DNA from: Blasia pusilla
Lineage: Eukaryota
Length of the DNA: 64,000 nt
Direction of reading: 5' to 3'
Assembly: GCA_050084515.1 (NCBI GenBank)
Contig: CM114271.1
Location: forward strand, 20,336,001-20,400,000
The notes beneath the pieces were generated by a model. That model was given only the letters and a program-made list of their open reading frames with translations, had not been told where the DNA came from and ran no database searches. Both the position numbers and the translations under genes were made by a program. Positions 4,819 through 31,386 of the stretch are shown here, one piece after another (position 1 is the first letter of the stretch; each line of letters starts with the position of its first letter).

Positions 4819-5463
4819 TGTCGTACGCATACCCATCGCTACACAACATACATCGCTGTCACCGAACACACACACACATACACGCATGATCCCATGCTAA
4901 CTCATGGCATCCAAACAACGAGACAAGAAGTACCAAAATATCTCCAATAAAGTAAGCTTCAATCTCTCTCTCTACACCATCTCACACCATAGCTCTCAAA
5001 GGTGTGCACTCTCTCTCATGTCAAACCAAACCCACTCTCCTAATGAGAGGCTCGGGTTACACTCACAAGGCAAGGGACCATAGCTCCGCCGCCTCATGCC
5101 AAGAGGTTCAACAAAGAGAGAATGAGCTCTCAAGCTCTCTCTCCTTGAGGTATACCCCTCCCCTCTCCCAAGCTCTCTCCATGGTAACCTATTCTCCCAA
5201 GTCACCTCCTTGGCTCTTGACCTGATGTAGGAGGTCAAAAGCCACTTACCAAAAATAGAAAGTCGATCATATACTCAAAATGGTACTTACCTAAAATAGT
5301 AAGTTCCTCAATATGGTTCATAATGAGCCGAAACGAAGGGGAAACCTGCTCTCTCAGGTTTCCTAGGGCCTCAGCAAGTCATCCGCGACCTACTGAGCAT
5401 GTCCTCCACTACTCATGAAGGCGCTCTATTAGATCTCACTGATCTATCCTAAAAGACGTGACA
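4819..5463 (-). repeat. 3' LTR of DNMT/PHD-Gypsy element (copy 1)
   Basis: Termini tgtcgt...gtgaca; strongly similar to 30210-30717 and 58361-59022. Confidence 0.85.
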
Positions 5464-5465
5464 GC

Positions 5466-5593
5466 TGTCGTGCGCATACACATTGCTACACAACATACAT
5501 CGCTGTCACCGAACACAGACACACAAACACGCATGATCCCATGCTCACTCATGGCATCCAAACAACGAGACAAGAAGTACCAAAATATCTCCA
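5466..5593 (-). repeat. Extra ~128-bp direct copy of LTR segment A (4819-4946), next to the polypurine tract
   Basis: tgtcgtgcgcatac...caaaatatctcca repeats 4819-4946; minus-strand AGGGGGGCG PPT-like tract at 5596-5604 lies immediately internal to it. Confidence 0.85.
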
Positions 5594-5766
5594 ATCGCCC
5601 CCCTAGCTGGTAGTTAGGTCCCTCTAACTCCAGATAGCCATCTATCCCTACCTACCATGACATACATCTCTCGGACGCTAAGAGCAAGAAGGCCGGGTGC
5701 TCATGTGGCCCCATCGTTAGTCGCCTCCTTGTCATCCAAGTCACAGACACAAGTCAGAATGTAGAA

Positions 5767-5919
5767 CTACCTACTCAATGTACATCTGGGACACATCCAT
5801 CGTCCCTGAGGAACCCTAGTGAGAGGTGGCGTCAAACATGCCATATGCCATCCTCTCGAACACCCATCACAGACTAGCATCGTGGCCGCACCACGGCGGG
5901 CGTAACCACACAACATACA
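5767..5919 (-). pseudogene. PHD finger (C4HC3) at the Pol/integrase C-terminus
   Basis: Manual translation of 5919-5782: CMLCGYARRGAATMLVCDGCSRGWHMACLTPPLTRVPQGRWMCPRC, then TLSR and TAG at 5769-5767. Canonical PHD spacing including W-x-C-x2-C. Not shown in the ORF track. Confidence 0.9.
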
Positions 5920-7100
5920 ACGCAAGCTTTGCAGGAACTACTACTAAGCTCGGATCTAATGTACCATCAATGTTAGGAAGGTGACATGGCGCATAATTAC
6001 GCACATGGTCCTTCCATACCATAACATCGCGTCCCTCCAGCAAGAGAACACCCGATGGCAAAATGTCACACTCTCAGGATAGTGCGCCTGTGATCACATC
6101 CAACGCCGGTGCCGTCTGGCTGCAAGTAGACATAATCTCCCTGATGAAACCTCCGGATAGTTGGTCGATAACCACCATCCCGAATAGTCGCATACCTCAA
6201 CGTATCCCGATGTTGTGCAATCGCCAAGTTCTCGAACGCCATGGGCATCACTCTCCGAAATAACTCATCCCTCTGAGAACATGCTCGCACCCATACATCT
6301 GGGTCATCAAGGTTCAAGCACTCACCCAAGATCTCGACGAATGGCCGTAGGTAAATGTGGCTCTCGGCCATAAAGTAGCAAGTACGGTGAAAAAGACGCT
6401 AAGGATGCGTGCCTGCTGAATCTGTATCCCATCGCCAACCATGGCAACTGGAGGTCCCAATCTCCTAGGTGACCTCTCTGCAAGCCATACTTGCGTAAAC
6501 CTCTCTTCACTGTCTGCACAACTCTCTCCGCTAATCCATCCGCCTCGGGATGATCTCGCGAAGTCGTGCGGTGGTCGATCAACGCCTGATCACACAAGGC
6601 CTGGAACTCACCGCGAAACTCGGTACCTTGGTCTGTCAACACCTCAGCCGGTGCACCATAATGACTCAGCACTCTGTCAAGGAAGGCATAAGCTACTCCC
6701 TCACTCGCTTTGTCAGGCAATGCAACCAACTCGATCCACTTCGAGAAGTGCTCGACCATCACCAACACATAACGACTGTGACGCTCCATCAAGGGCAAAG
6801 ATCCTGCAAAATCCAAACTCCATCTATACCCTAAGCCCATGATCGGTAAGGGATGCAACTGTGGAGTCGGAGCATTGAACGATGCTCGGACCCGATCACA
6901 CACCATGCATCTGGCAACAAACTGCTGGACGTCAGTCTGCACGCCTTGCCACCAATATTGAATCTGGAGCAAGCTGTACGTTCACTTCACCCCAAAGTGA
7001 CCCAAATCCTCATGGGCATGCTGCACTAGTCGTGCTCTCTGCGAAGGATGCGGCACTACGCGTACTCTGCTATCCTCCCAAACCCTCAAAACATGTGTCC
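5920..7100 (-). pseudogene. DDE integrase (HHCC + rve core + C-terminal region), frameshifted
   Basis: HEDLGHFG...YWW...CMVC zinc domain; ORF 6322-6972 with SLDFAG, TDQGTEF, ADGLAERVVQT; then SPYLLLYGREP and FHQGDYVYL. Confidence 0.95.
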
Positions 7101-7399
7101 CCTCCCAACGAAACCGCCGGCCCAGAGGATCCGATCCTGCTCTCTAGCATCCATGGTGCTCGCTTAACGCTTTGCCAAAGATCTGAAGGTAATCCAAGAC
7201 TACTCCATCATCATGAATATCTCGGCCACTTGTCGTGTCCTCACTGGCCTAGGGATCCAAGGACTCTCCACTAGACCTCGCCATCAAAGTCTCCTCACTC
7301 TGGCTCTCCATAGCCAACATGCCTAAATAGGCTGACGAATGCCATCCTGACACTGACTCCTCATCACTCTCTCCATGCCATCGAGCTCTAGTCGCATCT

Positions 7400-8720
7400 C
7401 GCAGACTCGAGCATGGGTTATGACTCAACCCATCTGCATCCTGGTTGAGCGTCCCAGGTCTATATACCACCTGAAAATCATACTCGTGCAACAACAGAGC
7501 CCATCTCGCAAGCTTCCCTGTAAGCTTGTCGGACTCCATCAACCACTTCAGTGGTTGATGATCAGTGATGATGGTAAAGGGGTTGCCAAATAAGTAACAC
7601 TGAAATGCGCGATGGCCCACACATGACCAAGCACTCACCCTCATACGAGTGTACTTTGTCTCTGCAGCGTTGTTCAGCGGCTAGCGTAAGCCACCACAAA
7701 CTCTCTACCCTCATCATCATCTTTGGGTGAGCACCGCTCCAAGCCCCAACATGCTCCAATCGTGCAATGGCGAAAGGACCCCGATCGGTCTCCTCAAGAT
7801 GGGTGCGGACGTCAACTTTGTCCTTGAGCAATCGAAATGCTCACTCCTGCTCATCCCCCACGCCACTCGTGATCCACCTTGGTCGAGCAAGGTCGGCCGC
7901 TTAATCGAATCGAATCCCTTGCGTATCTCCGATAGAAGTTCGCCAATCCCATGAATGCGCGAACACGGCTCACATCTCAGGGGCGTGGAATGCGTGAGAT
8001 AGCCTCTACCTTCGTTTCTTTGAACATCAAGGCCCCTGGGTATATCGTATGACCCAAGTACTCAATCTGGTCGTAGAAGAACTTGCACTTTCTGGATGTA
8101 GCTTCGGCCCATGTAATTGCAATCGCCGGAATACCTCCTCTAGATGTTGCTCATGCTCCTCAACCGCGGGCGCTAAAGACTACAATGTCATCAATATAAC
8201 ACCTAGCAAAATCCGGACCAGCCAAGATCCTATCGATGACCCTCTGAAACTCAATCGGGGCGTTCTTTAACCCAAATGGTAAGAACCGCCATCGGTACAA
8301 ACAATCCTTCCGTGAGGATCGATGCCCCAAAATGCCGTCTTCGCTTTTGTCCTCCAATCGATAGGCGTTGATGGTATCCGCTCATAAATCAATGAATTGA
8401 AGATCTTTGCGTGACCAATCGCATCAAAGATCTCTCAGGGGTGGGCATGGCATACCTATCGGACTTTGTCTCGCCGATTGATAGGTCGGTAATCCCCACA
8501 TCCGCCTATCCGCCCGGTTGCCATGCACATCCTTCTTGGCGGGCATGACAGTGGCAGATGCATACTCCCCATGCGACATCTCCACTAGTCTCGCTCGACC
8601 AAGTCATGGCTCCTACTCAATCGAGCCCTCTCCATATCATCACACTGTAGGGTTGTCGGAAGATCGGCATATCACTCGACAACTCAATGCGGATCCCGGT
8701 CCCTTCAAGCGTACCCAAAT
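7400..8720 (-). pseudogene. Reverse transcriptase and RNase H of Gypsy copy 1
   Basis: ORF fragments YRWRFLPFGLKNAPIEFQRVIDRILAG...[10 protein letters not shown] and YLFGNPFTIITDHQPLKWLM...KLARWALLLHEYDFQVVYRPG; many frameshifts. Confidence 0.93.
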
Positions 8721-9164
8721 CCTCCATGCTAAACGCAGCGGCTCCTATAACTCTGAGGAACGATGTATTCGGCGCCGCTCTCCTCCTGTCAACTTAGGGC
8801 CCATATCGGCTCCCAAGTCTCCATCGTGACTACGGTAGGACTCTCCGTGGCGCGGGTATCGGTGGTTGCTATGGTGCAACCCGTCTCGAACAAAAACACT
8901 CGGCCGCTCTCCTGCGACCAAGCGCAAACTCGATCTCCTCCGTGCGGTGCCCAAAACCACGCTCAATGTTGTAGCTATCATCTCCATGCGTGCACTGCAA
9001 AACATCCCAAGAAGTCCAAGGGTGTCTCTCCGATCTCCCCGGTCGAGATCTCCTCGGGTCTCGCCCCGACCCACGCCTCCACCGTCTCGGTAGGCATGGG
9101 GCTCCAACGCAACCGCTCGATCTATCGCGATCTCATACGACGTTGCTCAGCCACTCCCAAGCCG

Positions 9165-10080
9165 AGATCCATGTCAGCGTTCAGTCCATCGCCGACCTAA
9201 GACATGGTGTCGTGAAGCCTCGACACTTGATGGTACTTCCGTCACTCCTGCGGGGAAATCCCATCGCCGCTCTCTCTCTCGGCGTTGGGCTCCACCAACC
9301 GCTGAACTGGTCATCCCAAACCAAGCTAGGACCGGCCTCCTTGTATGCATAGGAAGCGGAAAACTCACAAACGTGGGCAAGGCGCCCAGTTTTTCCTACC
9401 CTGTTGACCACGATCCAGCGGTGGTCGATCATCGTGCCTCACCGCTCTGTGATCGACGACCTGGATCAAGAATGGAATCCACTAACAAATGGGAGGGGCG
9501 CTCCACTCTCGCATACGCCCTCCATAACACCGCATGGGGTACCAAGTTGGTCCACCATAGACGCGGGCGATGGGCTCTAGAACCTACACTCGCCGCATCA
9601 AGAACACCGTTGAGCCGATCCGGGACGCACTGATGAGCACTCGTCACCACCCGTGACTGGAGTCTCCTAAGATCGGCACATTCTCCAGTGTAGGTGGAGA
9701 ACGAGGACTCAGTGCTCTTGCAGCGCCGAAGACCCTCAACATCTCCCAAAACAACTGGACCGAGTGTCGCCCAACCCATTTGCCTCGTCCGACTCGTACG
9801 ACATGGCCAACCGGCAATGACCAAATCAATGGTCCCTACCCGCTCTAAGTCTGCGCCCCAACAACAAAATATCCTCGCTAGGGAAGTCAGGTACCCTCAG
9901 ACTGCGGACGCACAATAAGTCGGGAAAACATAGGCGTAATTGCGCCACATATCGTAGTGAGACGCACCTCACAACATCATCACTCTCCACTTACAGGTGC
10001 TGGCTGTACTTGCACTCGTCCTGCAAAACAACGGCTAACCCGGTGCTAATCCTTCCAAAGAGATCTAACACTCGAATACC
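9165..10080 (-). pseudogene. C5 cytosine DNA methyltransferase domain (DNMT3-like) in Gypsy Pol, copy 1
   Basis: GIRVLDLFGRISTG (motif I), IDLVIAGWPC (IV), LENVPILGD (VI), DAASVGSRAHRPRLWWTNL (VIII), ERAAMGFP (IX), spread over frameshifted frames. Confidence 0.88.
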
Positions 10081-10586
10081 CTCCTCCGGGATACACCACA
10101 CAATGGGTGTGGTATCCAAGGATGTCATCGTAGCACTCCCTGCTACCTCGGGTTCCTCAGACCCGTCACGCTCTGGTGCAAATGCCTCGCTCCCACGTGG
10201 TGACGTGCGTGCTCATCGCTAATCGTTGAAGCTCCTCGGCCGAGCCCAACGGCACCTCTCCTCCACGGAATGATGCGGCTACCATAACACTCCTCTCCAT
10301 AGAAATGTCGAACGGAGTATCCTCTGCATGGACATGTCCTCAATCAAATCACTAGGCCAAGTGATGGCATCGCTAAATCCGCTAAGGTCGCCATCTCTCC
10401 GGCCGCTGCTCGATCATCGCACCTATGAATCGAACGGATAATGAGCTAAGGCGCCCATCACCTGACTTCCATCCTGGTCTCAGGGACGCCGCTCCTCCCG
10501 GTAATCCAGGAAAATCCCCGGGTATAACATCGCTCCACCAACCAAGACGTCGAGGACTCGCATCGTCTCTATTGCCTTGGCGCGCA

Positions 10587-11123
10587 CTACGGACTCATCG
10601 TAGGATGTCGGCGAATCCTCACCACGACCTCTCGCCGGGTGATATACTGTGTGGTACTCGCTCTACCCAAGGATGTCTGTATCCGGAATGGACAACGCTC
10701 CACATCGACTCTCGTCAAGCCCAATCCTCTGAATGACGCTTTCCCCAACATCAAGGATTGCGCTCCTGAATCCAACAAGACGTGCTGCGGACTAAAAGCT
10801 ATACCTCCAAAACTCACCAACTGGAAGACCTCTCCTCGGTTATCCAGCAACACAACACCAGGAAAAGCCATGGCACGCTCTATCGCGGGTCTAGCGGGCA
10901 TCTTTGCCATCCTAGCAGCCGCAGCGTGCCATGAATCTGACCTGGACGGCCCGAGCATCCGCTCCAAGGGCAGGTCCATCACATCCTCTGCAATCACCTC
11001 TAAACGTGATGTAGGAACCCCAACTCCGTGCTCACATAGTGAAGCGGCCAGCCAAAAAGCCTCGGCGGGCAAACCCCCCAACGTCATAATATCGGAAGCA
11101 GAAAATAAAGGAGTGCGGTACAC
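10587..11123 (-). pseudogene. Retroviral-type aspartic protease, copy 1
   Basis: HVLLDSGAQSLMLG (DSG catalytic motif); homologous to 26124-26519. Confidence 0.85.
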
Positions 11124-14100
11124 AACGGTGTCGTGTCAAGAGTCTTTCTTCGAGCAAGGGCGGGCCTTCTAGCTGCGGTAGATGCGGTTGATGCAAGGTG
11201 AATTCTCTAATAAGTTCTCCTTTTTCAATACAAAATTATGATGTACACTCCACTAGAAGAAATCCTTGGTTTTATGACTAGGTTATATGACTCATATGAG
11301 TCATACTTTACATACCACGACTAACAATGACTGACGACTACTTTAGACACAAAAGCCAAGTCATATTTGTTTGGCGACTAGGCTAACTAGGATGGTCAGC
11401 TTAGGTGGAAGTTGGAATATGACTCGAGGGTATAGTCATGAGGCCATGACTGACACGTCACTCAGATGACATGGAATAATGACACATCATCAGTGACATG
11501 GACTATTTAGTGTGATGTGTCACTGATGACAAGGACTATTGTTGTGACATGTCACTGATGATGTGGACTAGAGTACGACTCATCTAGTTATATGTGTATA
11601 TTTTTCTAGTTTCCACCAACGACTCCTTTAGTTATGGTTGGTGTGCAAAAGTTCAGAATATCCTATCAAAATGCACCAAGTGTACTCCATTCAGTTATAG
11701 TTGGCAACTCATGTAGTCATGTAGTATGACTAGAAGAGTAGAGTTACATGACTACTATAACAACGGACACAACTGGTTTAGTCACGAAGATATGACTATG
11801 TGAGTTGCGGAAATTATATAGTCATTGCAACATAACTGCATGAGACATACAATTATGACTAGAGAGAACTTGAAGCTTACTACTTTAGTTTTTGAACGTC
11901 TTGTGCAAGTTATATTGATATGACTAGTGGGAATATAAATTTTGGATATTTTGGAATGTTTATTATGCCTTTTGAACGGTGCAAGAATTAACGGATCTGA
12001 ATTATTGAAATCCTCTTTTCCATTTATATGGTGAACATTTAAGCGTTCACATTAGCACATAGTATAATTTTGAAAAAAATGCACATAACTAAAACAACAT
12101 CATATATCCAGAAACATGTCAACTCAACTATATGGAAGTAGCACATGAGCACTATGTTGTTATATTGAGTAGTGGCATCTTGATGTAATCAAGAAACTAC
12201 ATGAATTTTCTCTGAGTTTAGAAAGAGATGTAATAAGAATGTCTTGCTACAAACGAAACATACACAAGCAATTAACCAAGCAAATAATGAAAACATACTC
12301 TTGAAAACAGATTTTGAGGGGTGGAATGTCACTAAAGAGTAGCTCCCATATACCAAATTACAAAATGAATCATTATTACATGGGGTTATAATCCAAAAAT
12401 AGATAAAAAAAACAAAGATCAAATATAGTAGGGTTTATGATCTCATCTTGAAAGAGCAAGAGAGAATATGTCATCCATGAAAACAAAGTTATTGCACCTT
12501 AGATAGTTGGGTGCCAAAAGAAAAGACTACTCTACTGAATCACCTTTCTCATATGCATCTGTGGCCAGAGCATGCTTGAGCCAAGAGCATCACCAAATGT
12601 TTCTTGTACAGGTTCGTCTATCAAATTCGGCATCCACAAAACATGTTCTGGTTCGAACACCTCGTTTAGATCAACCCTCACCACGCCTAAGGGGATGTCT
12701 TTGGCATGGAACTTGTCTCTTCCATCAAATCTGATATAACTCCTGAACCAAGCACCATCCTACTCAACTTTGGTTTGGTGAATAATACGTGATCACCAAT
12801 TCGTAGCTAAAAAAATACACAAGCATTTAGTTAGTATCAATTCAAATTCTTTCCACATGCATTTGCACCATTCATCTGAAAGTAAAAAACTGCTATGATA
12901 TACCTGTTTGAAAGACCATCCCCATTTCGGAAGATGATGCGAAAAGTTCACACAAGTCCTAGACGACCATTTGACTGTCCACAACTTTACCTGATTGGGA
13001 TCCCCAATAGACATTACTTACCTGTGCAGTAGCTTTGGGCAATGAATCAAGGCTACTGAATGTGTTGAACAATTCTGGTGCTACCAGAATGAGAGAGAGA
13101 AAGACTATACTATTAAGTAGTGCCTGTTGTAGCCTTGCTACCATAAACCCCGCGCCATGGTTGGACGGTGCTTGAGAGTGGGATGCGTGTAGAGAGAGAA
13201 GCAAGTGAAGAAGGTACCTTGAACAATTCTGGTGCTACCAGCTTAGCAATATCAAAGATATGCTCTTGCTCGAGGAATACGACTTTTGCGTAGGGAAACC
13301 AAGTAATGGCTAGATGTTTCATCCCTATCGTTCTGAAGGCGTCAACAATATGGCATCAAGAAGCGGAGCAAAATCACAATGATCTAGGAACTCAGAGAAG
13401 GGGATCTGGAGACTCGTTTGGTAGATCACCAGGGTGAAAAGAGCAAGAGTGAAGTAGCTCTCCATGCAGCAACTAAGGAGCGCCAAAACAAGGTTTCTCA
13501 CTGGAAGCAAAGTGGCGGCCTTTGTTGAAGAAAGGGAAGAGAATGTAATTGCTCAGAGAGCTTCAGAGGCACATAGAGAAGCTAGAGCCGAAGCTCGGCC
13601 TATGTGGATACATCAAGAGGACTGAAAAAACAAATCTCTCATTTGGAGAAGATACAAAAGCTGGATTAGAGGCCAATTTACTAGATGTGTTGAAAATTAT
13701 TCTGCATACAACAAGATTGAGCTCTTGAAATGGCCAATGAACAGTTGATACTGGGTGGCCTTGATGGGTATCGATCATTTGCAGATGGAGGTATGACTTG
13801 TTGAGGGTGCCGTATATTGAAGAGAAGCTAAAATAAACTTCTTCATACATTCTCAAATCTTAAACATCAAGGGACGTCGGAGGGAGCAATTCGCCCACGC
13901 AAGACCGTGAGATTCCATAAATGATGACAACAAGCGATCTTAAAGGCGGGCGGAAGGAACAAGCCAGAACTCACCAAGAGAATCAGTAGAGTATGCCGGC
14001 GTAGATCAGAATCAGCACGAGGAGAAGCGCAACACAAAGAGCATGAACTCCCACCCAGCAGAGCTTTAGGCCCCACCGCAGTGGATCCCCTAGCAAGCGG

Positions 14101-17749: not shown

Positions 17750-20700
17750 CCACCACTAACATCATAAACCCTAAAAACGGTCTTCCATTTTAGGTTTGAG
17801 CATGGAGAGCTAACTTGTAGATCTGAACCATATAATTTGTGGAAGACATTAATGGACAGGCTCTGAAAAAATATTCATCCACATCCAATGGTGGCAAAAA
17901 AAAGTTACTACCATGTTACGATGAAAATGAGACAACGCCTAAGAAAAAGACTACTCAAAGTCCTAGTCCTCCTTCTTAATCCATCATTTTCTCCTCTCCT
18001 CCTCAAACTCCTCCTCCTTAAATCTTGAAACTTTTCCCAGGGAGGCAACCTGTTTTGAGGAACACAAGCCAAAAGAAAAAATTACAAATGACCACTCACA
18101 CATGGTATTAAAAACCGTAAACCCTAAATAAGGTTTGTAATTTTTGGTATTAGCATGGGAACTTGAATAAAAGATCTGAACCGTCGAAGTTCTTGACAAA
18201 TCTAATATCAAGGCTGGGAAAAATATTCATCCCCATCCAATGGTGGAAAGAAAAGAAACCACTATGTTACCATGAAAATAATGCAAAGCGTTCGAACGAG
18301 ACTATTCAAAGTCCTCGTCCTCCTTCTTGATCCATCATTTTCTCCCCTCCTCCTTAACCATAAGTCCTAAAATCTTGAAATTGTTCCCAGGGGAGCAAGC
18401 CAACTCCAGGAACACAGATCAAAAAAAAAAAATTACAAATGACCATTCAAAATGGAATTAAAAATTATAAACCCTAAAATTGATCTTTCATTTTTGGTTT
18501 GAGCACGGAGAGCTAACTAGCAAATCTGAACCGTTCAACATGTGGGCGGATTTGAGGCCTTAGTGTGTGTTAGGTTTCATCACCATCCAATGGTGGGAGA
18601 AAAATTAAACTTCATGATACAATGAAAATGCCATAAGGACTCGAACATAACAACGCCAAAAATCCCACACTTTGCCTTTTTTATCTCCATATTCCTTATA
18701 TTTCAGCTCCATCCAACAGTGGGAAGTCAAGATACTAGAGTGCAAACATCAAAATTGAACTAACACTTGGATCATTATTCGTGTTTTGCCTTTCTTCGTC
18801 TTTCATCTCCATTTGCTTGGCCCTCCTCTTCATCATCGTGTCTATAAATCATGAAACTTTGTCACAATATGTACTTATGTGTTACTATACCAATGTAAAA
18901 GAAAATCTCCAAATGGAGCCTAAACAGGGAATAAAAATCATAAACCCTAAATATGATTTCCCATTTTTAAATTGAGCAGGGAGTAGGATATGGAAAATCC
19001 ACACGGTCCAAAAGTAAAAGGGCCTTCTCATGTCCATATTCCTTATTTTTTAGTTCCATCCAACGGTGGGAAGTCAAGATGCTAGAATGCAAACATCAAA
19101 ATTTAACTAGCTCTTGGAACATTATTGATGTTTTGCCTTTATTTCTCTTTCATGTCCATTTTGTTGGCACCCCTCTTCATCACCAAGTCCATAAATCCTC
19201 AAACTTTGTCACAAGATTTACTTATGTGTTAATATACCAATAAAAAAAGAAAATATCCAATTGGATCCCCGGCCTGGGAATTAAAAATCATAAACCTTAA
19301 ACAAGGTTTCCTATTTTTAAATTGAGCATGAACTAGGATATGGAAAATCCACACCGCCCAAAAGTAAAAGGGCCTTCTCATCTCCATAGTCCGTATGTTT
19401 CAACTCCATCCAACGGTGGGAAGTCAAGATACTAGAGTGCAAACATCAACATTCAACTAACTCTTGAACATACTTTGGTTTATGTGTGGTTTTCTTTCTT
19501 AGTCTTACATCTCCATTTGCTTGGCCCTCCTCTTCATCACCATGTCTATAAATCATGAAAATTTGTCACAAGATGTACTTATGTGTTACTATACCAATGG
19601 AAAATGAAAATCTTGAAATGGACACCCAAAGAGGGAATAAAAGATCATAAACCCTAAACATGATGTCCCAATTTTAAATTGAGCATGGAGAGGATATGGA
19701 AAATCCACACCGTACAAAAGTAAAAGGGCCTTCTCATCTCCATAGTCCTTATATTTCAGCTACATCCAACGGTGGAAAGTCAAGATGCTAGAGTGCAAAC
19801 ATCAAAATTGAACTAACTCTTGGATCATTATTCGTGTTTTGCCTTTCTTTGTCTTACATCTCTATTTGCTTGGCCCTCCTCTTCATCACCATGTCTATAA
19901 ATCATGAAAATTTGTCACAAGATGTACTTATGTGTTACTATACCAATGGACAAATAAAATCTTGAAATTAACGCCCGGCCAGGGAATCAAGATTGAGCAT
20001 AAAAATAAAACCCTTAATGCGGTTTCCTAATTATAAATTCAGCATGTAGTAGGATATGGAATATCCACAGTGTCCAAAAGTAAAAGGGTCTTCTCATCTC
20101 CATAGTCCTTAAGTTTTGAGCTCCATCCAACGGTGGGAAGTCAAGATGCTAGATTGCAAACATCAAAATTCAACTAACTCTTGGAAGATTACTTGTGTTT
20201 TGCCTTTATTCCTCTTGCATATTCATTTTTTTGGCCCTCCTCTTCATCACCAGGTCTCACCAAGTATGCCCTAAATCAAGATACATTTCCTTGAGGAGCA
20301 TCCCAACACCTAGAATAAAGGGGAAAAGAAAAAACTCCAAATGACCACTCGTACATGGATTTAAAAATCATAAATCCCAAAGGAAGTGTTTCATTTTTGG
20401 CACGATAATGGGGAGCTAAATAGCATATCAAAACCGTTCAAGTAGTGCAAATAATTAAGAGAAAAGTCAGTGCCACGTTTTATCACCATATGATGGTTTG
20501 ATGAAAAGATAGCTACATGTTAATATGACAAACTACTCCCAACATTCGTACTCAAAGGCCTCCTCCTCCTTCTTGACATCCCATTCTCTCCCCCCTCCCC
20601 TCACCAAGGGTTCCAAAACTCAAGAAAATTTTTCCACATGGGCACCCCAACACCAGGAACTAAGGGGGAAAGAAAAAACTCCAAATGACCACTCACATAT

Positions 20701-20890
20701 GGATTTAAAAATCGTAAACCCCAAAGGAGGTGTTTCATTTTTGGTAGGAGCATGGGGTGTTAAATAGAAGATCCAAACCATTCAAGTAGTGCAAAAAATT
20801 AATTACAATGCTAGTGCCAAGTTTTATCTCCATCTAATGGTTAGATGAAAAGATATGGTTATGTAAACATGAAAATGACACAACAGCTTC
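17750..20890. repeat. Tandem array of ~350-360-bp units (about 9, in 2-3 subtypes) inside the CACTA element
   Basis: Anchor TAAACCCTAAA-like words at ~17765, 18118, 18468, 18941, 19291, 19648, 20005, 20371, 20716; ccatccaacggtgggaagtcaagat at ~18709, 19056, 19406, 19762, 20123. Confidence 0.88.
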
Positions 20891-22305
20891 GAATAATCCC
20901 TACCAACATTAGAGCATTAAATCATTTAAACATATGAGTTGTTTTTTATGACTCATCTTTACTGGTCGAGTAAATCAAGTATGACTCGTCTCTACTAAAG
21001 GTTATTGATAACTACGTTAGTCATAAGCAGATGACTTGGTGAGTCGTACGACCCTAAATTTGATGACTAAACCATTTAAGTCATAATTTGAGTCATTCTT
21101 TCGATGAGTCACTTAAAGTCTAGTCATAAAAACCACCCATTTCTTCTAGTGCTCTCCATTCTCTCACGACAGGTATCACAAATGGAAGTGCCGAGGCGAT
21201 CACTTCTTCGTAAGATCGGACCCCAAAATTCCTAACTATAAAATCCCTATAAACTATTTTACGCTTGTACACAAGGAAGATAGCATAACTAGTGCTAAAC
21301 CCTACTTGAGCAGGCCTATTGACATCCATGGATCGCTATATAAGGACATACAAAGTACAATCCCATGTCCTTCCATATATGACAATAGGAAGAATCACCG
21401 GAGTTGGAGATTGCATGACCTGGTTCATGAACGCCTCCCCAAAGTGATAAACTAAATAGCGAGTGAACCAGTGCCTATCTACAAAGAGTACCTTGATATG
21501 GTAAGGATTGAGGAAAGGAAAGTTGGGCACAGCTCGTGCTCCACCCCTATCCATGCTTGACAGACATTCTCTACTCTCCTCAAGAATGGGTTTTGGCGAA
21601 GTTATTCTCCCAAGAGGGGTAATCCACTCTCATTGGGGAAGTAACAAGCCAAAACATCCGCTATTTTAGTATGACTAAACTCCTCTACGCTGACAAACCT
21701 CTCATCCCCACACACACACATACCACTCTAGAAATCTCTCGAACAATAGACCATGGTCAAGTTACTCTCCCAAGAGGAGTAATCCACTCTCATTGGAAGA
21801 GCAAGCAATCCCAAAGCCATACACTCAAGAGAGACATGAGAGACTCAAGATGTGGAATAGAAGGTGATGAACCCTTGAAGGTCCCTCCTCTTTATATACT
21901 CACAAGGGATCCACAAGAGTACGAAATAGTGCTTATCTTATCTTGTGCCACATGGCTTCCTCTCAAGGCTTAGCCAATCACATTTTGACACAAGTAGATT
22001 TTCTCTTATTTCTTCCAAAATATCCTCTTTTACCCACTTGATATTTTCCAAATTATCCCAACTAACCTAGCCATCAACCAAGACTACTTTTGCTTTTCAT
22101 TAAAGCAACTACTTTACTTTTATAAAGTCATCTTTTATTTATTACCTCCTTTTCCTAAAGTTGGGCCCGCATAAAAGAGGCACCATAAAGAGGTTTAAAC
22201 ATAATAATCTCCTTTTTCTAAGCCAATTTACTTAATACTAATGAAACTCTTTCTAACACTTAATGACGAAGGAGTTTACACACTAGTTGATTCTACTATA
22301 CGACA

Positions 22306-23702
22306 ACGGTGGCCGCCCCCAACAATATGCTCGACACATGCCCCTCTTGAGCATCAACAATAGGAGTCATCGCACTCGCTTCTCCCATCGCCTTCTATGC
22401 CTGCACACCAACAACATCACCAACTCTCCAGGAACTTTGATGAGGACCCATCCAGGATCCTCCAGATCTCTGGCTACTCCATATGATGTCGATGCCACGG
22501 ATCCGGCATCGGGTAACCTCAATGCCATAGCGGCAATCTGCTCCTGTAGCTGCTGTATCTGAGCAACCATCCCAGCCTCACGTCCGGCGTCTCCCTCGGC
22601 GCGTCTAGGTGGTGGTACTCTACCTCCTCCACGGGTAGCTCCACCACCTTGTCGGGCAACTCCAGCTGCTCGTTCCCCAACGGGACCACCTAGTGCACGA
22701 TCTCTAGGCCTAATCGGACCGACTACTCGCTCTGGTGCCCTCTCTGACCCTCGGTCCGAACGTAACTCAGGATGTAAACTGAAACACCTGGCGCGTGTAT
22801 GACCATACCTCTGACAATAGTCATACTGATAACCTCTTGGTGCAGCACCATCTCCTCCTCCATGCTGAGGCACACGTCCATGACCCTGACGAGTCCAATC
22901 GCGTTGATGATGGGCTCCACCACATGACCAACAAGTAATAGTAGGCGGCTATTGCTGAGCCGCATATGAAGGCGCAAGTCTCTGTGGCACGGCCTCCCGG
23001 TATCCTCCCTGAGCTCGTGGTGCCACAGTCGACCTATCTCGGAGTCCATGTTGTTTGCAGGTGGTGCGATAATCGTGATCGCTCTCGCCTGAGAACCCAT
23101 GGTGGCTACGCTCTCCTCCGCCATGTTGCGCTCAATGTTCTCGGCGGTCCTAAAAACATCTCTCAACGTAGGGGAGGTGTTCATAAAAGCACCCCTCCGC
23201 ACCCGTGTCGCAGTGGTCCGGTCAAAGATCGCGTACCATGACTGGATAGCTTTGAGCCTCTGTCACCCCCGAGTGGCGTTGATCAACCGCGCAGCGAGTG
23301 TAAGCCTCACGCAAACTTTCACCGGGTGCCTCTCGAAGTCGTGGATGCTCCGCAACTTCTCCGTCCGTACCCCCCTGGTCGCCGCCCTCAATCGAGCAAA
23401 GAACTCAACCACGTGGTTGAACTGGGGACGAACCCGACTAGACGTGCAATCTGCTCCCGTCATTTGAGTGACCCCTCCTAAAACGTCACTAGTGGAAGAG
23501 GCAGTAGCCTCTCCTGACTCCTCCTTCTCATCTAGGAACGGCTCCGTCCATCACACATAATGTGGATCATAGTAGAGCCTCCACGCCTCGATCTCACATG
23601 CATATCTCTGAGAGAACTCATGGTAATCGTCCATGGGCGCCCCCTCTAAATGCTGGAACATACCGTTCCATGCTATAAACGGGTTGAACTCTCTAGAGTT
23701 CT
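22306..23702 (-). mobile_element. Gypsy copy 1, 5' part (gag with zinc knuckles), 5'-truncated
   Basis: Co-linear with copy 2 at 26735-28266; knuckle YQYDYCQRYGHTRARC; MNTSPTLRDVFRTAENIERNM matches ORF 27514-27804. Confidence 0.9.
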
Positions 23703-24320
23703 TCAATTGTCGAAACACCTCCTCTAGATATCGCTCATGCTCCTCAATCTGGTGCTAAAGACTACGATGTCATCAATATAACACCTAGCAAAATCCAGAC
23801 CTGCCAAGATCTTATCCATGACCCTCTGAAACTCATCCGGGGCGTTCTTTAACCCAAATGATAAGAACCCCCACTAGTACAAGCAATCCTTTCCGTGAGG
23901 ATCGATGCCCCAAAATGCCGTCTTCTGCATGTCTTCCAATTTGATACGCAGCTGCTAGTATCCGGCTTGAAGATTTAAAGAATTGCATGCCCAATAGCAT
24001 CAAGGATATCCTCAGGAGTGGGCATGGCATACTTATTGGACTTCGTATGCTGATTGATAGGTCGGTAATCTCCACACATCCTCCTATCCATCCAGTTGCC
24101 ATGCACATCCTTCTTGGCGGGCATGACAATGGCAGATGCATACTCTCCATGCAACATCTCGAGTCGTCCTGCGCCAACCAAGTTCTGGCTCCTACTCTGA
24201 ATCAGAGCCCTCTCCATGTCATTGTACCTGTAGGGTCGTCGGAAGATTGGCGTGTCACTCGTCAACTCAATGCAGATCCCATGACCCTTTAGCATACCCA
24301 AATCATGCATACTAAATGCA
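23703..24320 (-). pseudogene. Reverse transcriptase N-terminal half, copy 2
   Basis: PIFRRPYRY...ASAIVMPAKKD...RRMCGDYRPINQHT...YAMPTPEDILD; YIDD. Confidence 0.92.
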
Positions 24321-24727
24321 AAACAACTCCTATAACTTCTAAGGAACTGGTGTATCCGGCGCCGCTCTCCTTATGTCAACTTAGGGCCCATATCAGGCTT
24401 CCAAGTCTCCATCATGACTACAATAGGACTCTCAGGCGCGGGTGTCGGTGGTTGCTATGGTGCAACTCCGTCTCGGACATTAAAACTCTCATCTCCACGT
24501 GCAGTACCCGGAACCACACTCGATGCTGTGACTATCATCTCCTAGCATACCTGCAAAACATCCCAAGAAGTCCAAGGGTGTCTCTCCCGATCATCCCTGG
24601 TGTGTTGATCTCCTCGGATCTCGCCCCCAACCACTGCCTCAATTGTCTTGATAGGCATGGGGCTCACCAACGCAACAATTGTGATGTGTCGCATCCTCAA
24701 AAGACGCTGCTTAGCTACGCCTAAGCT

Positions 24728-25671
24728 GAAAATCCATGTCAAGGAGTTCAAATCCATCGCTTGACCCAAGACATGACCTCGTGATGCCCCTAATAGTGAC
24801 GGTACTGCCGTCACTCTTATGGGGAATCCCATCACTTGCTCTCGCTCATCAGCGTTGGGCTCCACCAACCCCTGTACCAGGTCATCCCAAACCAAGCCAG
24901 GTCCAACCTCCTTGAATGCATAGGAAGCAAGAAAACTCATAAATGTGGGAAAGGCTGCTTGTGGAATGCCAAGCCTTTTGACCATAGTCAACGACGGTAT
25001 ATCATCATGCCTCACCGTCTGTGATCAACAACCTGAATCCAAAATAGGATCCACCAACAAATCAGAGGGGCGCTCCACTCTAGCATACACCCTCCGCAAG
25101 ACCTCATGTGGAACCAAGTTGGTCCACCACAGACGCGGGCGGTGTGCTCTAGAACCTACACTCGTCACATCCAAAAACACTGCCGGACTGATCCATGCGC
25201 ATACCTGATGTGCACTCGTTACCATGCGGGCCTTAGATCGCCCAAAATCGGCACATTCTCCAGAATGTATGCTGGAGAACGAGATTGATTCTCCTGCAAG
25301 TGTCGCAAAATCTGCATCATCTCCCAAAATAACCTGGACCAAGAGTAAGCTAATCCGCTACCCTGTCTAGCACTCGGCTGGCCCTGACATGGCCAACCAG
25401 AAATTACCAAGTCTATGGTCCCTACCCGTTCCAAGTCTTGCGCCCCCAACAATGAAATGTCCCTTGATAGGGAACTCTGGTAATTCTGAATGGCAGACGC
25501 AGACAACAAGTCAAGAAAACGGAGGCGTAATTGCGCCACATGGTGAAGTGAAGCGCGCCTTGCAACATCATAAATCTCCGCATACAGGTACCGCTGCACA
25601 CGCACTCCCGCCTGCAAAACAACAGCTAACTTAGTGCTGATCCCTCCAAAGAGATCCAACACTCGAATACC
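24728..25671 (-). pseudogene. C5 cytosine DNA methyltransferase domain (DNMT3-like) in Gypsy Pol, copy 2
   Basis: ORF 25219-25710: IRVLDLFGGI (I), YLYAEI (II), IDLVISGWPCQG (IV, catalytic PC), SRLFWE, YILENV (VI). ORF 25025-25342: DVTSVGSRAHRPRLWWTNL (VIII). ORF 24542-25015: EREQVMGFP..T (IX), R.HVLGQAM (X). Confidence 0.93.
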
Positions 25672-26123
25672 CTTCTCTGGGATGCACCATACAATCGGAG
25701 TGGTATCCAAAGGGGTTATAGCAGCACTCGTGGCTATCTAGGTTTCCTCTAACCCGTCACACTCTAGTGCAAACGTCTTGCTCCATGCGGTCTGCACATG
25801 CTCAGTGGCTAAGCGTCGAAGCTCCTCAGTTGAGCCCCAAAGCGGCACCTCTCCTCCACGGACTAATGTGGCTACCATGACACTCCTCTCCATAGAAATT
25901 TTAGGAATGGTAGTATCCTCTGCATGGACATGTCCCTCAATCAAATCACTAGGCCAAGTGATGGCACTGCTAAATGCTGCTAAGGTCGCCATCTCTCCCG
26001 ACCATCGCTCGATCACTACACCTGTGAATCAAACGTGTAATGAGCTAAGGCGCCATCACTTGACTACCATCCTGGTCTGTAGGACGCTGACTCCTCCTAG
26101 CAATCCAAGAAAAACCCCATCGG

Positions 26124-26519
26124 TTATAACACTGCTCTACCAACCAAGATGTCGTAGGACTCTACATCAGTCACTATAGCCTTGGCTAGCACCACAGACT
26201 CATCAATAGGATGTCCCGGGCGAATCTTCACCACGATCTCCTGTCGGGTGATACACTTTGTGGTACTTGCTCCACCCAAGGATGTATGTATCCGGAATGG
26301 ACAACGCTCCACATCGGCTCTCGTCAAGCCCAACCCTCTAAACGATGCTTTCCCCAACATCAAGGGTTGCGCTCCTGAATCCAACAAGACGCGCTGTGGA
26401 CTAAAAGCTCTACCTCCGGGACTCACCAACTGGGAGACCTCTCCCCGGTTATCCACCAACTTAACACCAGGAGAAGCCATGGCTCGCTCTATCGGGGGTC
26501 TAGCGGGCATCTCCGCCAT
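26124..26519 (-). pseudogene. Aspartic protease, copy 2
   Basis: RVLLDSGAQPLMLG ... YDILVGRAVL. Confidence 0.88.
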
Positions 26520-27249
26520 CTTCGCAACCGCAGCCTACCATGAAATCTGACGTGGACGGCCTAAGCATCTACTCCAAGGGCAGGTCCATCACCTCATGTG
26601 CAATCATCTCTGAACGTGATGCAAGAACTCCAACTCCACGCTCACATAGTGTAGCGGCCTGCTGGAAAACCTCGGTGGGCCTACCTCCCAACGTCATAAC
26701 ATCGGAAGTAGAAAATAAAGGAGTGCGGTACACAACAGTGGCCGCCCCCAACAACATGCTTGACACATGCTCCTCCTGAGCATCAACAATAGGAGTCGTC
26801 GCACTTGCTTCTCCCATTGCCCTCCGTGCTTATACACCAACAACATCACCAACTATCCGGGAACTCTGATCAAGACCCATTGATGGGGTCCTCATCGCCT
26901 CACACAATGTGAAGGACTAAGGAAGCCTGGTTTGTTTCTTGGCTTCTCCTGGTATGGATCCAACTCTGCCGTTGCTCCACACGTAACAACTACGGCGGCC
27001 TCCATTTGGGCAACTCTGCACATCCAACCACGATCCTCCATATCTCTTGCAGCTCCGTAAGACGTTGATGCCACGGATCCGGCATCGGATAACTCAATGC
27101 AATAGCATAAATTTGCTCTTGTAACTGCTATAGCTGTTGTATCTGAGCAGCCATCCCAACCTCACACCGAGCGTCTCCCTTGACGTGTCTAGGTGGTGTG
27201 ACTCTACCTCCTCCACGGGCAACTCCACCACCCTATCGGGCAACTCCAG

Positions 27250-28350
27250 CTCCTCGTCCCCCAACGGGATCACCTCGTGCACGACCTCTAGGCCCACCGG
27301 GACCGCTTACTCGCTCAAGTGCCCTCTCTGGCCCTCGGTCCTGGACGTAACTCAAGGTGTGTGTGTGACCTTACCTCTCACAATAGTCACACTGATAATC
27401 TCTTGGTGCACCACCATCTCCTCCATGCTGAGGCACACGTCCATGACCGTGACGAGTGCAATCACGTTGATGATGAGCTCCACCGCATGACCAACAGTAA
27501 TCATAGGCGGTTGCTATTGAGCCACATATGAAGGCGCAGGTCTGTGTGGCACGACCTCCCGAGATCCTCCTTGAGCTTGTGGTGCCACAGTCAACCTATC
27601 TCGGAGTCCACGTTGCTGCACTGGTGGTGAAGACAATCGTGACTGCTCCCGCCTAGAACCCCTCGTGGCTACGCTCTCCTCCGCCATGTTGCACTCAATG
27701 TTCTCAGCAATCTTAAAGACATCTCTCAACGTAGGGGAGGTGTTCATAAGAAGCACCCCTCCCGCACCCGTGTCCGTAGGGTCCGGTCCAACATTGCATA
27801 CCATGACTAGATAGCCTGAGCCTTTGTCACTCCCTGAGTGACGTTGATCAACCGGCGTAAGCGAGTGTAAGCCTCACGCAAACTCTCACCCGGGTGCCTC
27901 TTGAAGACGTGGATGCTCCAAAACTTCTCCGTTCGTACCCCTCGGTAGCTCGCCCTCAACTCAGCGAAAAACTCAACCACGGGGTTGAACCTAGGACAAA
28001 CCCGACTAGACGGTGCAACTGCTTCAGTGCGAGTGACCCCTCCTAAAACATCACTAGTGAAAGAGGAAGTATCCTCTCCCGACTCCTTGACCTCATCTGG
28101 GAATGGCTCCGTCCATGACACATAGTGTGGGTCATAGTAGAGTTGCCATGCCTCAATTTCTTGGGCATATCTGTGGGAGAACTCATGGTAATCGTCCATG
28201 GGCGCACCCTCAAAATGCTGGAACATACCATTCCATGATGTAAACGGGTTGAACTCTCTAGAGTTCCTAGCTTGCTGTGAGTCACACCAACTCCTAAACT
28301 CAACAATGAAGTCGTGTAGCTCTATATTGCCTACAACACCCAAAAACCTA
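27250..28350 (-). pseudogene. Gag (capsid-like region plus two CCHC zinc knuckles), copy 2
   Basis: ORF 27807-28343 (…RHPGESLREAYTRLRRL…); knuckles CWSCGGAHHQRDC and CDYCER*GH read at ~27500-27360. Confidence 0.8.
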
Positions 28351-30209
28351 CGCTATCCTCTATCCCGGTCATCCATCTCGTACGCCCAACTGGTATGACC
28401 ACTCAATTAGGTACAATGGATCACAAACACACTCCTCTACACGCTTCCCCTCGTGTGAAGATGACACAGAAGGAGATCGAGGTGGTCTCTCACGTGGAGA
28501 CCCTCAAAACCTCGGACCACTCCCGGTAAACCCTCCAGAGCTACTCTCAGGTTCACTACCTTGCCTCTCAAAATTCTGAAAGGACACCGTGATGGCCCTC
28601 GTGGCCCTCGTGGCCCTCTCACACAATCACTCCCAATCTTGCAAGTAATCCCTCAATCACTCAAACTAAACATGCGGCACTCAATCTACACTCTCTCACT
28701 AAGACATGTGTTGTGCGGCAACAAGGAGCGTGGTGCGGCAAATCAACTGATCTATCATCTCATCGACAAACCATCCTCAACTCTGGACATCCCACATAGA
28801 TCTATGTCCCCTAAACCCTTACATCATCGATGCTCTCAGCATCAACACGAAACCCAATATCCCAAATAACTTCCCAAGACCTAAAAATCCCTCACACGTG
28901 CAGGATAAGAGACCAGAATGGGTAACCTGACAATAATGTCGATGTCGCTCCTCGGAAACTACAAATCTCGATCCCAACTTGGCCGTGAAGATAACTCCTC
29001 CAATCAGCAAGTCGTACTTCTCTCGTACTGATGCTGCTCAAACCTCCTCGATGTACGGTGCAGGTCCAGTAGTCCGGTGCGGCACTGGCGGCACGGAATG
29101 ACTACAAATGGCACGGCACTTGGGAATGGGGTGTGACACTCTGTGGCATACCCTCCTCAATAAAAAATTCATACACTCTCCTCCTTAGTGAAGGAGCGGC
29201 TTTGTGATGGAGATGGTGCAGTGCGGCCACGAGCGGCACGAGGCAGCAATCGGCGGTGTGTTACGACTATCAGCGTAACGGCAGGATACTCGATCGTCGT
29301 CGAGCGGCTACTAATCACAACATAGCAGCATGAAATGAAAACTCAAACACCATAACGTGAGATTGCCTGCCATCACTGGTTGATGACGAAACTACAATGA
29401 TGGTGGCGGCCAAACCAAAGTACGTGGTGGCGGGGAAGTCAGAAAACCAACGGTCGTCGTGGAAGACCCTCCACTATGTAATGGTGGCAATGGCAACCAA
29501 GGGTGGACAATGGCCGAACACGGCTTTGAGTAGCACTAGGCGGCGGCGGCGGCCGACGGTGGACTGTTGACGGTGATGGTTGACCGTGGATGGTGACGGC
29601 GGACCGTTGACGATGAAGATGATGGTTGACCGTCGACAACGGATCATTGACGTTGACTATGACGACGACGGCTTTAGGGTTTGAACAATTTAACCCTAAA
29701 AAATTGCCTAGCAATGACAGTTTTGCAAGATTGACCATAATTTTTTTCTTACAACTCCAAATTGCGCATTGTCTTGCACAGCGTGCACAGCTTCACGATC
29801 TACGACGGCGGAAAAAAATATTTTGAATCGAACATTCGAGTAAAAAGTGGTCGGGACTATTGTAAAGCCCAATGTCTCTTTCTCCTACACAAGATTCGGG
29901 ATCGCTTCCACGCTGATTTCTCCCATAAAAATCTAAAACGTGTGAGAACACAAATCAGCTAGTTACATGGTGCTCTCGAGAGCACCGGCATGGAGCAATC
30001 CGCCCCCATACTCAATTCCTATCGAAAATTGGGCAGCGCTTCTGCGTGGCACTCTCCCGTACAAAAAATCAGCAAAGCAAAATAGCAAACTCGCATGGCT
30101 CTTGCTCCAGTGAGCACTCCCATGAGCCATGAAGTAGGAAACACGATCCCCCAACCTGCACCAAACATCGAGCAACCAGCAAGCTCCCCCATGAAGCTCT
30201 CTCATTCAG

Positions 30210-30717
30210 TCATTCTCTCTTTGTAAAATAAGATCCAATCTCTCTCACAACACCATAGTTCTTACATGTCTCTCTCAATGTCAAACCAAACCCATTCTCC
30301 TAATGAGAGGCTTGGATTACACTCACAAGGCAAGTAAGCTCCATCGCCTCATGCCAAGAGGTTCAACAAAGAGAGAATGAGCTCTCACACTCTCTCTCCT
30401 TGAGGTATACCCCTCTCCTCTCCCAAGCTCTCTCCATGGTAACCTATGCTCCCGAGTCACCTCCTTGGCTCTTGACCTGATGTAAGAGGTCAAAGGCCAT
30501 TTACCAAAAATATAAAGTCGATCATATACTCAAAATGGTACTTACCTAAAATAGTAAGTTTCACAATATGGCTCCAAATGAGCCGAACGAAGGGGAAACC
30601 TGCTCTCTCAGGTTTCTTGAAGCCGCAATAGGTCATCCTCGACCTCTTGAGCCTGTTCTCCACTACTCGCGAAGGCGCTTTACTAGATCTCACCTATCTA
30701 TCCTAGAAGACGTGACA
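30210..30717 (-). repeat. 5' LTR (segment B) of Gypsy copy 2
   Basis: Similar to 4960-5463 and ends at the same cgtgaca terminus. Inner boundary uncertain; segment A is absent or highly diverged. Confidence 0.85.
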
Positions 30718-30789
30718 CATCTCTCTTCTTTGACCGTTTATCCCACGCCCTAAATGATTCGAGGATAATATTCATCCTCCATAATTTCC

Positions 30790-31386
30790 TCAAATAGTAG
30801 GAGATCACGAAGAATCTGAAGTGGAACGTATTTTCAAGAAACGCACTCGAGGAACTTATCACCAACGAGTCAAATATTTGGTCCAATGGAAAGGATATCC
30901 AGTATTTGAAGCCACATGGGAACCCTCAACCAACTTGGCCAATGCACTATTAATAGTGAAAGTTCTCACAACGAGGACATTGTGTCTTAAATGGGGGAAG
31001 ATTTGTAACCATCTTTTGTTAGTCATAGTTAAGTTAGAATCTATGACATGTAGTGCATAAGGGAGAAAGAAGCAACCAAAAAGAGAAAAGGTAAAAAATA
31101 TGAGATAAGGACGAGATTGGGGAAGATGAGATACGGATATTAGAATCCTAAGAAGATCCTCTCATGCCATGAGAATAAGACACATGGCATAAGGATAAGA
31201 AGAGCGAATTTATCTTCAATGTACCTATCTTTAGGTATATAAAGGAATAATAGAGGCCTTGAGGGGCATTCCTTTGAGCAACTCTAGAGTGGTTTTGTGA
31301 GTTGGAAAGTTATAATGACACTCATATCTCAAAGAAGGATAGAAAAGCATGAGATCTACCCTTAAGCTTCAATAGAATTTACTACA
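30790..31386 (+). mobile_element. Chromovirus (Gypsy) 3' remnant: chromodomain, PPT and start of LTR
   Basis: VERIFKKR...KYLVQWKGYPVFEATWEPSTNLANA (chromodomain), then gaggac...atgggggaag PPT and TG at 31004. LTR end uncertain. Confidence 0.75.

Follow-up and report, generated by a model that had tools for sequence, protein, structure and literature searches.

The DNA considered here is a stretch of 64,000 nucleotides from Blasia pusilla (GCA_050084515.1, contig CM114271.1, positions 20,336,001 to 20,400,000 of the forward strand), which we call the window and number from its first letter. Its minus strand carries, within 24728-25671, what is very probably the methyltransferase domain of a Gypsy-DNMT3 long terminal repeat (LTR) retrotransposon, in a copy that is dead. 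Elements of this kind are already known, first under the name KnitGypsy-Dnmt3 from the alga Klebsormidium nitens, and the window adds to them one more, decayed, member.

The methyltransferase domain and its family

The first-pass annotation, made from the letters alone, had read six cytosine methyltransferase motifs in this region, in unpermuted order and without introns. All six are found on the minus strand, within 24755-25668, in the order I-IV-VI-VIII-IX-X: motif I (IRVLDLFGGI) at 25639-25668, motif IV (DLVISGWPCQG, which holds the PCQ cysteine) at 25381-25413, motif VI (ENV) at 25252-25260, motif VIII (RAHRPRLWWTNL) at 25115-25150, motif IX (EREQVMGFP) at 24821-24847 and motif X (RGHVLGQAM) at 24755-24781; no intron interrupts them. 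The translation of the plus strand over 24728-25671 is full of stops, and a reading on that strand was rejected on this ground.

The motifs do not share one open frame: a frameshift and a TGA interrupt the domain, whose motifs are spread over three stop-to-stop pieces of the minus strand (25219-25737, 25025-25357 and 24542-25024). Piece 1 (25231-25737), supported by the list of open reading frames (ORFs), by Pfam PF00145 and by matches to DNMT3A/B/C, contains the end of the linker that joins the protease (PR) to the DNA methyltransferase (DNMT), then motifs I, IV and VI. Motif VI is separated from motif VIII by a change of frame at about 25229-25230; a programmed frameshift at about 25229 was considered and rejected, since relatives cross that place in a single frame. 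Piece 2 (25028-25228) holds motif VIII, after which the target-recognition region begins; this region is cut by an in-frame TGA at 25025-25027, in a column where the relatives have a sense codon. Piece 3 (24545-25024) comprises the remainder of that region, motifs IX and X, and a tail before the reverse transcriptase (RT). Piece 1 scores 31.8 bits against PF00145 (cut-off 22, E 1.3e-7); pieces 2 and 3, each searched alone, matched no Pfam family. The read-through sequence, i.e. the domain with an X placed at both breaks, aligns to a protein of Calypogeia fissa with 59% identity over 367 residues (E 5e-146). Such a likeness goes far beyond chance.

The first-pass annotation had also called the domain DNMT3-like rather than DRM-, MET1- or CMT-like, and the sequence and profile searches of the PDB, the Foldseek comparison and the unpermuted order all agree with it. 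Among the 34 PDB sequences matched by piece 1 at E<=1, 29 are DNMT3A/B/C (4.5e-8 to 1.1e-6); DRM accounts for the remaining five (0.077-0.22). The profile of the family likewise ranks DNMT3A (1e-11), DNMT3B (1.3e-9) and DNMT3C (2.2e-9) before tobacco DRM (8.4e-5), HaeIII (5e-3), HhaI (0.03), DNMT2 (0.05) and Arabidopsis DRM2 (0.07). DNMT1/MET1 and CMT are absent at E<=1 from both searches (34 and 51 sequences), and Pfam detects no BAH, RFD or chromo domain on the minus strand around the domain, nor any UBA domain around it. Pieces 2 and 3 gave non-significant PDB matches only (DNMT3B 0.44, the unrelated GliG 0.65, DNMT3A 0.97), with the local alignments to DNMT3 landing on motifs VIII and IX-X.

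Plant DRM2 has a C5 methyltransferase fold related to that of DNMT3, but its sequence matches to the window are weak, the E-values of DRMs being 5-9 orders of magnitude poorer than those of DNMT3. The arrangement of the motifs also differs: the profile matches DNMT3A in three collinear stretches, whereas on DRM it places motifs I-VI at residues 228-350 of a 357-residue chain. This C-terminal location is expected because the motif blocks of DRM are circularly permuted; those of the window are not.

Structure prediction, which had been proposed as a check, points in the same direction. For P0003, an intact natural relative with 60% identity to the window, AlphaFold gave a model with pLDDT 90.9 and pTM 0.89, and all 32 chains listed by Foldseek for this model, at ranks 1-48 (the gaps in rank are collapsed entries), are DNMT3A/B/C, with E from 2.9e-18 to 2.4e-15. 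The TM-score normalised by the target is 0.80-0.85 for crystal chains of the catalytic domain (271-291 residues) and 0.41-0.56 for longer chains.

Animal DNMT3A/B/C are thus the best matches among solved structures by sequence and by fold, with motifs I, IV-VIII and IX-X collinear, and they share with the window family, besides the cysteine and the glutamate of ENV, the H-R-x-R of motif VIII. The identity is nevertheless only about 20-23%, and motif IV reads PCQ in the window versus PCN in animal DNMT3. Between motifs VIII and IX the target-recognition region has 89 codons in the window against about 64 residues in DNMT3A; this region, some 25 residues longer, is left unaligned by HMMER and is not alignable. 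The first-pass annotation had suggested that it may define a new sequence specificity. Altogether, the sequence matches and the fold of the relative designate DNMT3 as the nearest family among solved enzymes.

The element and its second copy in the window

The surroundings of the domain were mapped by Pfam scans in three frames, in which stops were taken as X, and by tblastn with polyproteins of Marchantia and Sphagnum. On the minus strand the order is gag (28346-26949), protease (26549-26043), linker and methyltransferase (26001-24551), then RT (24403-23754). The gag of this copy (26949-28346) was located by tblastn, as was the aspartic protease region (26043-26549), which contains LLDSGAQ and for which the Pfam match is weak and under the cut-off (RVP_2, E 0.0097). 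The linker between protease and methyltransferase (25741-26028) counts about 96 codons; it is kept in the bryophyte relatives and contains no known domain. The RT fragment (23754-24403; Pfam RVT_1 E 1.8e-7, and tblastn) ends at 23704, where a gag fragment (22303-23701, 83-87% like 26732-28266) is fused to it. The gag pieces and the linker had no Pfam match.

Host DNMT3s carry N-terminal reader domains, PWWP and ADD in animals and a DUF in land plants, according to PMC12344493, where DNMT3 members embedded in retrotransposon structures are described as well. Unlike animal DNMT3 with its PWWP and ADD, the window domain has a protease and an RT as neighbours, and Pfam detects no such reader domain, the land-plant DUF included, on the finding copy. 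Because of these flanks, and of the lack of a detected N-terminal reader, the domain is a DNMT3-type domain inside a retroelement, not a DNMT3 gene.

Reads of the same organism (one DNA run and three RNA runs) were placed on the stretch at >=88% likeness. The DNA depth is 244-598 over the bins of the methyltransferase versus 14 in the least covered bin; since the former far exceeds the latter, the element family is multi-copy. At 23704, 1199 DNA reads from sister copies diverge from the window sequence, and because these reads continue differently there, the junction of RT and gag is a rearrangement private to the finding copy. With its frame change, its TGA and an RT truncated and fused to a gag fragment, this copy is unable to make an enzyme. 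Over 24506-25841 the depth on the methyltransferase (244-598) is below that on the protease (about 1350) and on the RT (about 810-1040). Either the methyltransferase is more diverged among the copies, or relatives devoid of it share the protease and the RT.

Fifteen kilobases away, a second and more decayed copy with the order PR-linker-DNMT-RT lies at 8120-11130 on the minus strand, with its methyltransferase at about 8992-10146. It is 80% identical to 23704-26740 over 3096 bases; over the methyltransferase region the identity is 78%, with 39 gap runs, 31 of which fall in the 8120-11130 copy. In both copies protease, methyltransferase and RT have the same orientation, with no repeat in between (Pfam, tblastn). 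The recurrence of this layout in the window, and in single ORFs of the relatives, bears out the earlier statement that the methyltransferase is borne by a retroelement.

It also bears on a quite different explanation, in which the domain would be a host DNMT3 pseudogene lying amid retroelement debris, or the product of an assembly chimera. The region is indeed a patchwork of rearranged repeats, the RT being fused to a gag fragment at 23704; but the order PR-linker-DNMT-RT is repeated in the second copy 15 kb away and within single annotated ORFs of several species, and DNA reads from many sister copies cover the stretch. We therefore rejected this explanation on the repeated order, and consider it as extremely improbable. 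The domain of a decayed Gypsy-DNMT3 element remains our reading.

The remainder of the pol of the 8120-11130 copy lies at 5782-8790 on the minus strand (Pfam and tblastn), with RT and RNase H (RH) at 7084-8790, integrase (INT) at 6475-6876 and a PHD finger at 5782-5919; the Pfam E-values are 3.9e-14 for RT_RNaseH, 3.9e-15 for Integrase_H2C2, 2.3e-12 for rve and 4.3e-9 for PHD. The PHD finger is located about 210 residues past the integrase core, and the same spacing is observed in chlorophyte relatives of the order RT-RH-DNMT-INT-PHD. With a PHD finger placed after the integrase, the element thus pairs a writer of DNA methylation with a reader of histone tails, which stands there instead of a chromodomain.

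The 3' end of the 8120-11130 copy (4819-5595, minus strand) is made of repeat B at 5466-5595, repeat A at 4948-5463 and again B at 4819-4948, that is a terminal repeat of about 515 nucleotides bracketed by a 130-nucleotide repeat whose two units are 95% identical. This B-A-B layout resembles the split repeats of DIRS-type elements, and it would fit the DIRS-like repeats that the legend of Fig 4c in PMC5890265 gives for KnitGypsy-Dnmt3. On the side of the finding copy, a candidate terminal repeat A, starting with TGTCAC on the minus strand, is found at 30224-30717, about 1.8 kb upstream of gag; it is 86% identical to 4948-5463 and 71% to 58511-59022, and the highest DNA depth of the covered stretch (2333, bin 30184-30517) is at this repeat. 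The full layout, from the legends of Figs 1e and 4c, would be A-coding-B-A-B: the B-A-B part is present 3' of the 8120-11130 copy and an A unit upstream of the gag of the finding copy, neither of the two having the whole.

Relatives and age of the lineage

A single-sequence search returned 21 proteins with 38-65% identity to the window piece, the best-scoring at about 60%; the matches with a name are from Marchantia polymorpha, Calypogeia fissa, Sphagnum troendelagicum and S. fallax. The closest relatives, at 55-60% identity, belong to liverworts and Sphagnum. A profile search of 1.84 billion representatives (clusters at 50% identity, with a profile that stops short of motif IX) gave 3560 proteins at E<=1e-3, of which 921 reach <=1e-10 and 245 reach <=1e-30. 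The 150 best-scoring of these 3560 have E<=1.3e-38 throughout, and the length of many lies between 1000 and 3456 residues. Among these 150, the domain order is RT-RH-DNMT-INT or parts of it in 72 and (gag)-PR-DNMT-RT or parts of it in 15, the other 63 showing the domain alone. No vascular-plant name appears among the matches listed, which is a weak indication, and the homologue searches listed no canonical DNMT3, DRM, DNMT1 or CMT sequence either.

A tree of the domain was built from the window and 132 of the 185 model-matching proteins, those covering the core (53 were dropped). Its midpoint root separates the two domain orders without mixing, with supports of 0.88 and 0.99. One side contains the PR-DNMT-RT order (18 labelled and 12 unlabelled tips, the window among them), and a protein of Mesostigma viride falls on it; the other contains the RT-RH-DNMT-INT order (82 labelled and 21 unlabelled tips). 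Named members of the first order are those of K. nitens (KFL_009030040), Closterium, Marchantia, Calypogeia and Sphagnum, and named members of the second those of Scenedesmus, Haematococcus and Chromochloris. When eight chlorophyte members are used to root a tree of 48 sequences, the copies of Calypogeia and Marchantia form a group with the window (support 1.0), and K. nitens falls on the same side of the tree, in another subclade.

Five records, P0003, P0005, P0007, P0009 and P0010 (Marchantia, Calypogeia and Sphagnum-like), are all 71-76% identical to P0003, and the window copy falls outside this group, at 55-60%. Such a star-like pattern across hosts that split anciently suggests, from the identities, either a strong constraint or a horizontal spread. 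Two other records, P0189 and P0289, carry the eukaryotic retroelement protein under the label of bacterial metagenome-assembled genomes (Minisyncoccia and Candidatus Obscuribacterales) and are probably mis-binned contigs.

The published element of reference is that of K. nitens. PMC5890265 describes, for this alga, an LTR Gypsy element whose Pol includes Dnmt3-related, unpermuted and intron-less domains, with conserved key residues and a Ka/Ks <0.2. The element has since been called 'Gypsy-DNMT3' in streptophytes (bioRxiv 10.64898/2026.05.21.726589). From its name and its domains, we infer that KFL_009030040 is one of the published KnitGypsy-Dnmt3 copies. Its order, PR-DNMT-RT-RH-INT, has the methyltransferase at the same place as in the window element; it shares the GWPCQG of motif IV and the LGQ.MDLN of motif X, and it is 36% identical to the window read-through over 275 residues (E 1e-47). 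It differs by the subclade, the window element being grouped with those of liverworts, by the lack of PHD among its Pfam hits whereas the 8120-11130 copy has a PHD finger after the integrase, and by the broken state of the finding copy. In the published tree, the retroelement copies of K. nitens form part of a 'more divergent clade' of Dnmt3-related sequences, and the event is assigned to 'the K. nitens lineage'; Marchantia, mosses and liverworts go unmentioned in the accessible part of that paper (PMC5890265).

The first-pass annotation had gone further and proposed a captured de novo methyltransferase. The gene is not newly captured; the domain belongs to an old and widespread lineage of the KnitGypsy-Dnmt3 kind. 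A recent and independent capture of a host DNMT3 by a retroelement, in the lineage of Blasia pusilla, would account for a domain that is DNMT3-like and intronless, and the capture of DNMTs is repeated in eukaryotes, as PMC5890265 and bioRxiv 10.64898/2026.05.21.726589 report. However, the domain is homologous to, and collinear with, that of the polyproteins of K. nitens, Closterium, liverworts and Sphagnum, with which it shares the PR-DNMT-RT order; no fewer than 245 clusters (made at 50% identity) are matched at E<=1e-30, when human DNMT3A scores only about 1e-11. A recent capture is in our view very improbable, and we keep to a member of the Gypsy-DNMT3 lineage.

The chlorophyte Gypsy elements of the order RT-RH-DNMT-INT-PHD, whose methyltransferase is of the same family as that of the window, are represented by the 'pol' KAF8056149.1 of Scenedesmus sp. 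PABB004 (34% identity, E 5e-45) and by QJQ45_005506 of Haematococcus lacustris (29% identity, E 3e-33). In these elements the methyltransferase is inserted between RNase H and integrase, in the window between protease and RT, and the two are found on opposite sides of the midpoint-rooted tree. SymbioDIRS-Dnmt3 of Symbiodinium also has a DNMT3-type domain in a retroelement Pol, as in the window; it is, by contrast with the Gypsy element of the window, a tyrosine-recombinase (DIRS) element of dinoflagellates, and a protein of Symbiodinium kawagutii gave a weak match only (E 1e-7). A search of the literature found no description of bryophyte or chlorophyte members, of the second architecture, of the link to PHD or of a Glu-Cys motif IV, some of which the supplements of 2018 and 2025 may list.

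Constraint, transcription and possible activity

The catalytic residues had been said to be retained, and this stands both from the motifs of the window and from their near-invariance in 184 sequences: the catalytic cysteine is kept in 182, the ENV glutamate in all 184, the two arginines of motif VIII in 181 and 182, and the E-R-E of motif IX in 180, 176 and 180 respectively. In the motif IV column (window 25393-25398), the residue preceding the catalytic cysteine is more variable, being Pro in 89 of the 184 and Glu in 87. Pro-Cys is the canonical motif IV of C5 methyltransferases, and Glu-Cys is unusual among them.

Between the two window copies, dN/dS of the methyltransferase is 0.32 in frame over 284 codons, the shifted frames giving 0.76 and 1.19; that of the RT is 0.25. 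The domain thus shows purifying selection between both copies, as does that of KnitGypsy-Dnmt3. The synonymous divergence between 23704-26740 and 8120-11130 is uneven, with 0.23 for the protease, 0.27 for the linker, 0.61 for the methyltransferase and 0.45 for the RT. This segment-wise divergence looks like a mosaic issued from recombination between sublineages.

RNA reads cover the methyltransferase bins mostly with the first mate on the plus strand (depth 3.7-24.6, versus 0-3.4 on the other strand, over the three runs). In most stranded libraries this corresponds to RNA of the minus strand, which is the sense of the element. A chromodomain ORF of another element, at 30785-31060 on the plus strand (Pfam E 2.4e-11), is read in the reverse way: over bin 30852-31185 the first mate is on the minus strand, with a depth of 144-153. 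From this opposite bias the libraries are therefore stranded.

In intact copies the domain would be translated as a part of Pol. It would bind S-adenosylmethionine (SAM) through motifs I-III; the cysteine of motif IV would then attack C6 of the flipped-out cytosine, the ENV glutamate and the arginines of motif VIII assisting as they do in DNMT3A. We hold it as rather probable that the intact relatives methylate DNA. De Mendoza et al. (2018; PMC5890265) proposed that the retroelement enzymes methylate complementary DNA (cDNA). After them, the leading candidate as substrate may be the cDNA of the element itself, or its fresh insertion, an idea to which we give somewhat less than even credit.

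The domain might have been retained for another purpose than DNA methylation, acting on RNA or serving as a DNA-binding, chromatin-binding or structural module of Pol, like the non-catalytic DNMT3L. In yeast KnitGypsy-Dnmt3 gave no detectable methylation, a result judged inconclusive by the authors; human DNMT3B likewise failed in this assay, and for the SymbioDIRS-Dnmt3 enzymes de novo methylation of CG was shown in yeast (PMC5890265). The authors of that paper raise RNA methylation for enzymes borne by long interspersed nuclear elements (LINEs). The replacement of Pro-Cys by Glu-Cys in nearly half of the relatives would also fit a departure from DNA methylation. On the other hand, residues required for catalysis only are near-invariant (the cysteine, the glutamate of ENV, the arginines of motif VIII), which speaks against an inert scaffold since a scaffold would not need them. 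Retention without DNA methylation thus seems unlikely to us, although clearly less so than a recent capture, and the domain is better read as that of an element whose intact relatives may methylate DNA.

Several points nevertheless weigh against our reading, beside the yeast result and the 87 relatives with Glu-Cys. The finding copy is broken and fragmentary, with a frameshift, a stop and a cut-off RT, and searches for repeats yielded no pair that bounds either copy within the window. The assignment to DNMT3 comes from sequence and profile matches in the PDB and from fold matches, and the fold is that of the model of P0003, not of the broken sequence of the window itself. Selection at a dN/dS of 0.32 is weaker than in K. 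nitens, where <0.2 was reported. Finally, RNA reads at least 99% alike to the window amount to only 15-20 of the 3088-3377 per run; because they are so few, the RNA derives from sister copies, on the sense strand.

Elsewhere in the window, a remnant of a transposase-like ORF lies at 48620-49510 on the plus strand (zf-C17orf113 finger, E 1.8e-11, and DUF4371), and 17758-20900 and 60100-60830 belong to one family of dispersed and tandem repeats, 66-86% similar, with a run of units of about 350 nucleotides at 18683-20257.

A wider picture can be drawn, tentatively and with more doubt than confidence. The Gypsy-DNMT elements might form an ancient clade extending over the Viridiplantae, with the PR-DNMT-RT order from streptophyte algae to bryophytes and the RT-RH-DNMT-INT order in chlorophytes, both with a PHD finger after the integrase; they would be still transcribed in a land-plant-like genome, and may methylate de novo in a context of their own.

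That transposons may bear the very class of enzyme by which they are normally silenced is a curiosity already known. The kind is much wider than one alga: it is found in liverworts, Sphagnum and Closterium, probably in Mesostigma, and, with its domains rearranged, in chlorophytes. What deserves attention is how widely the family has spread, together with its second architecture and the PHD partner, and the relatives offer tractable hosts, e.g. Marchantia, for asking what the element gains from its methyltransferase and which context is methylated.

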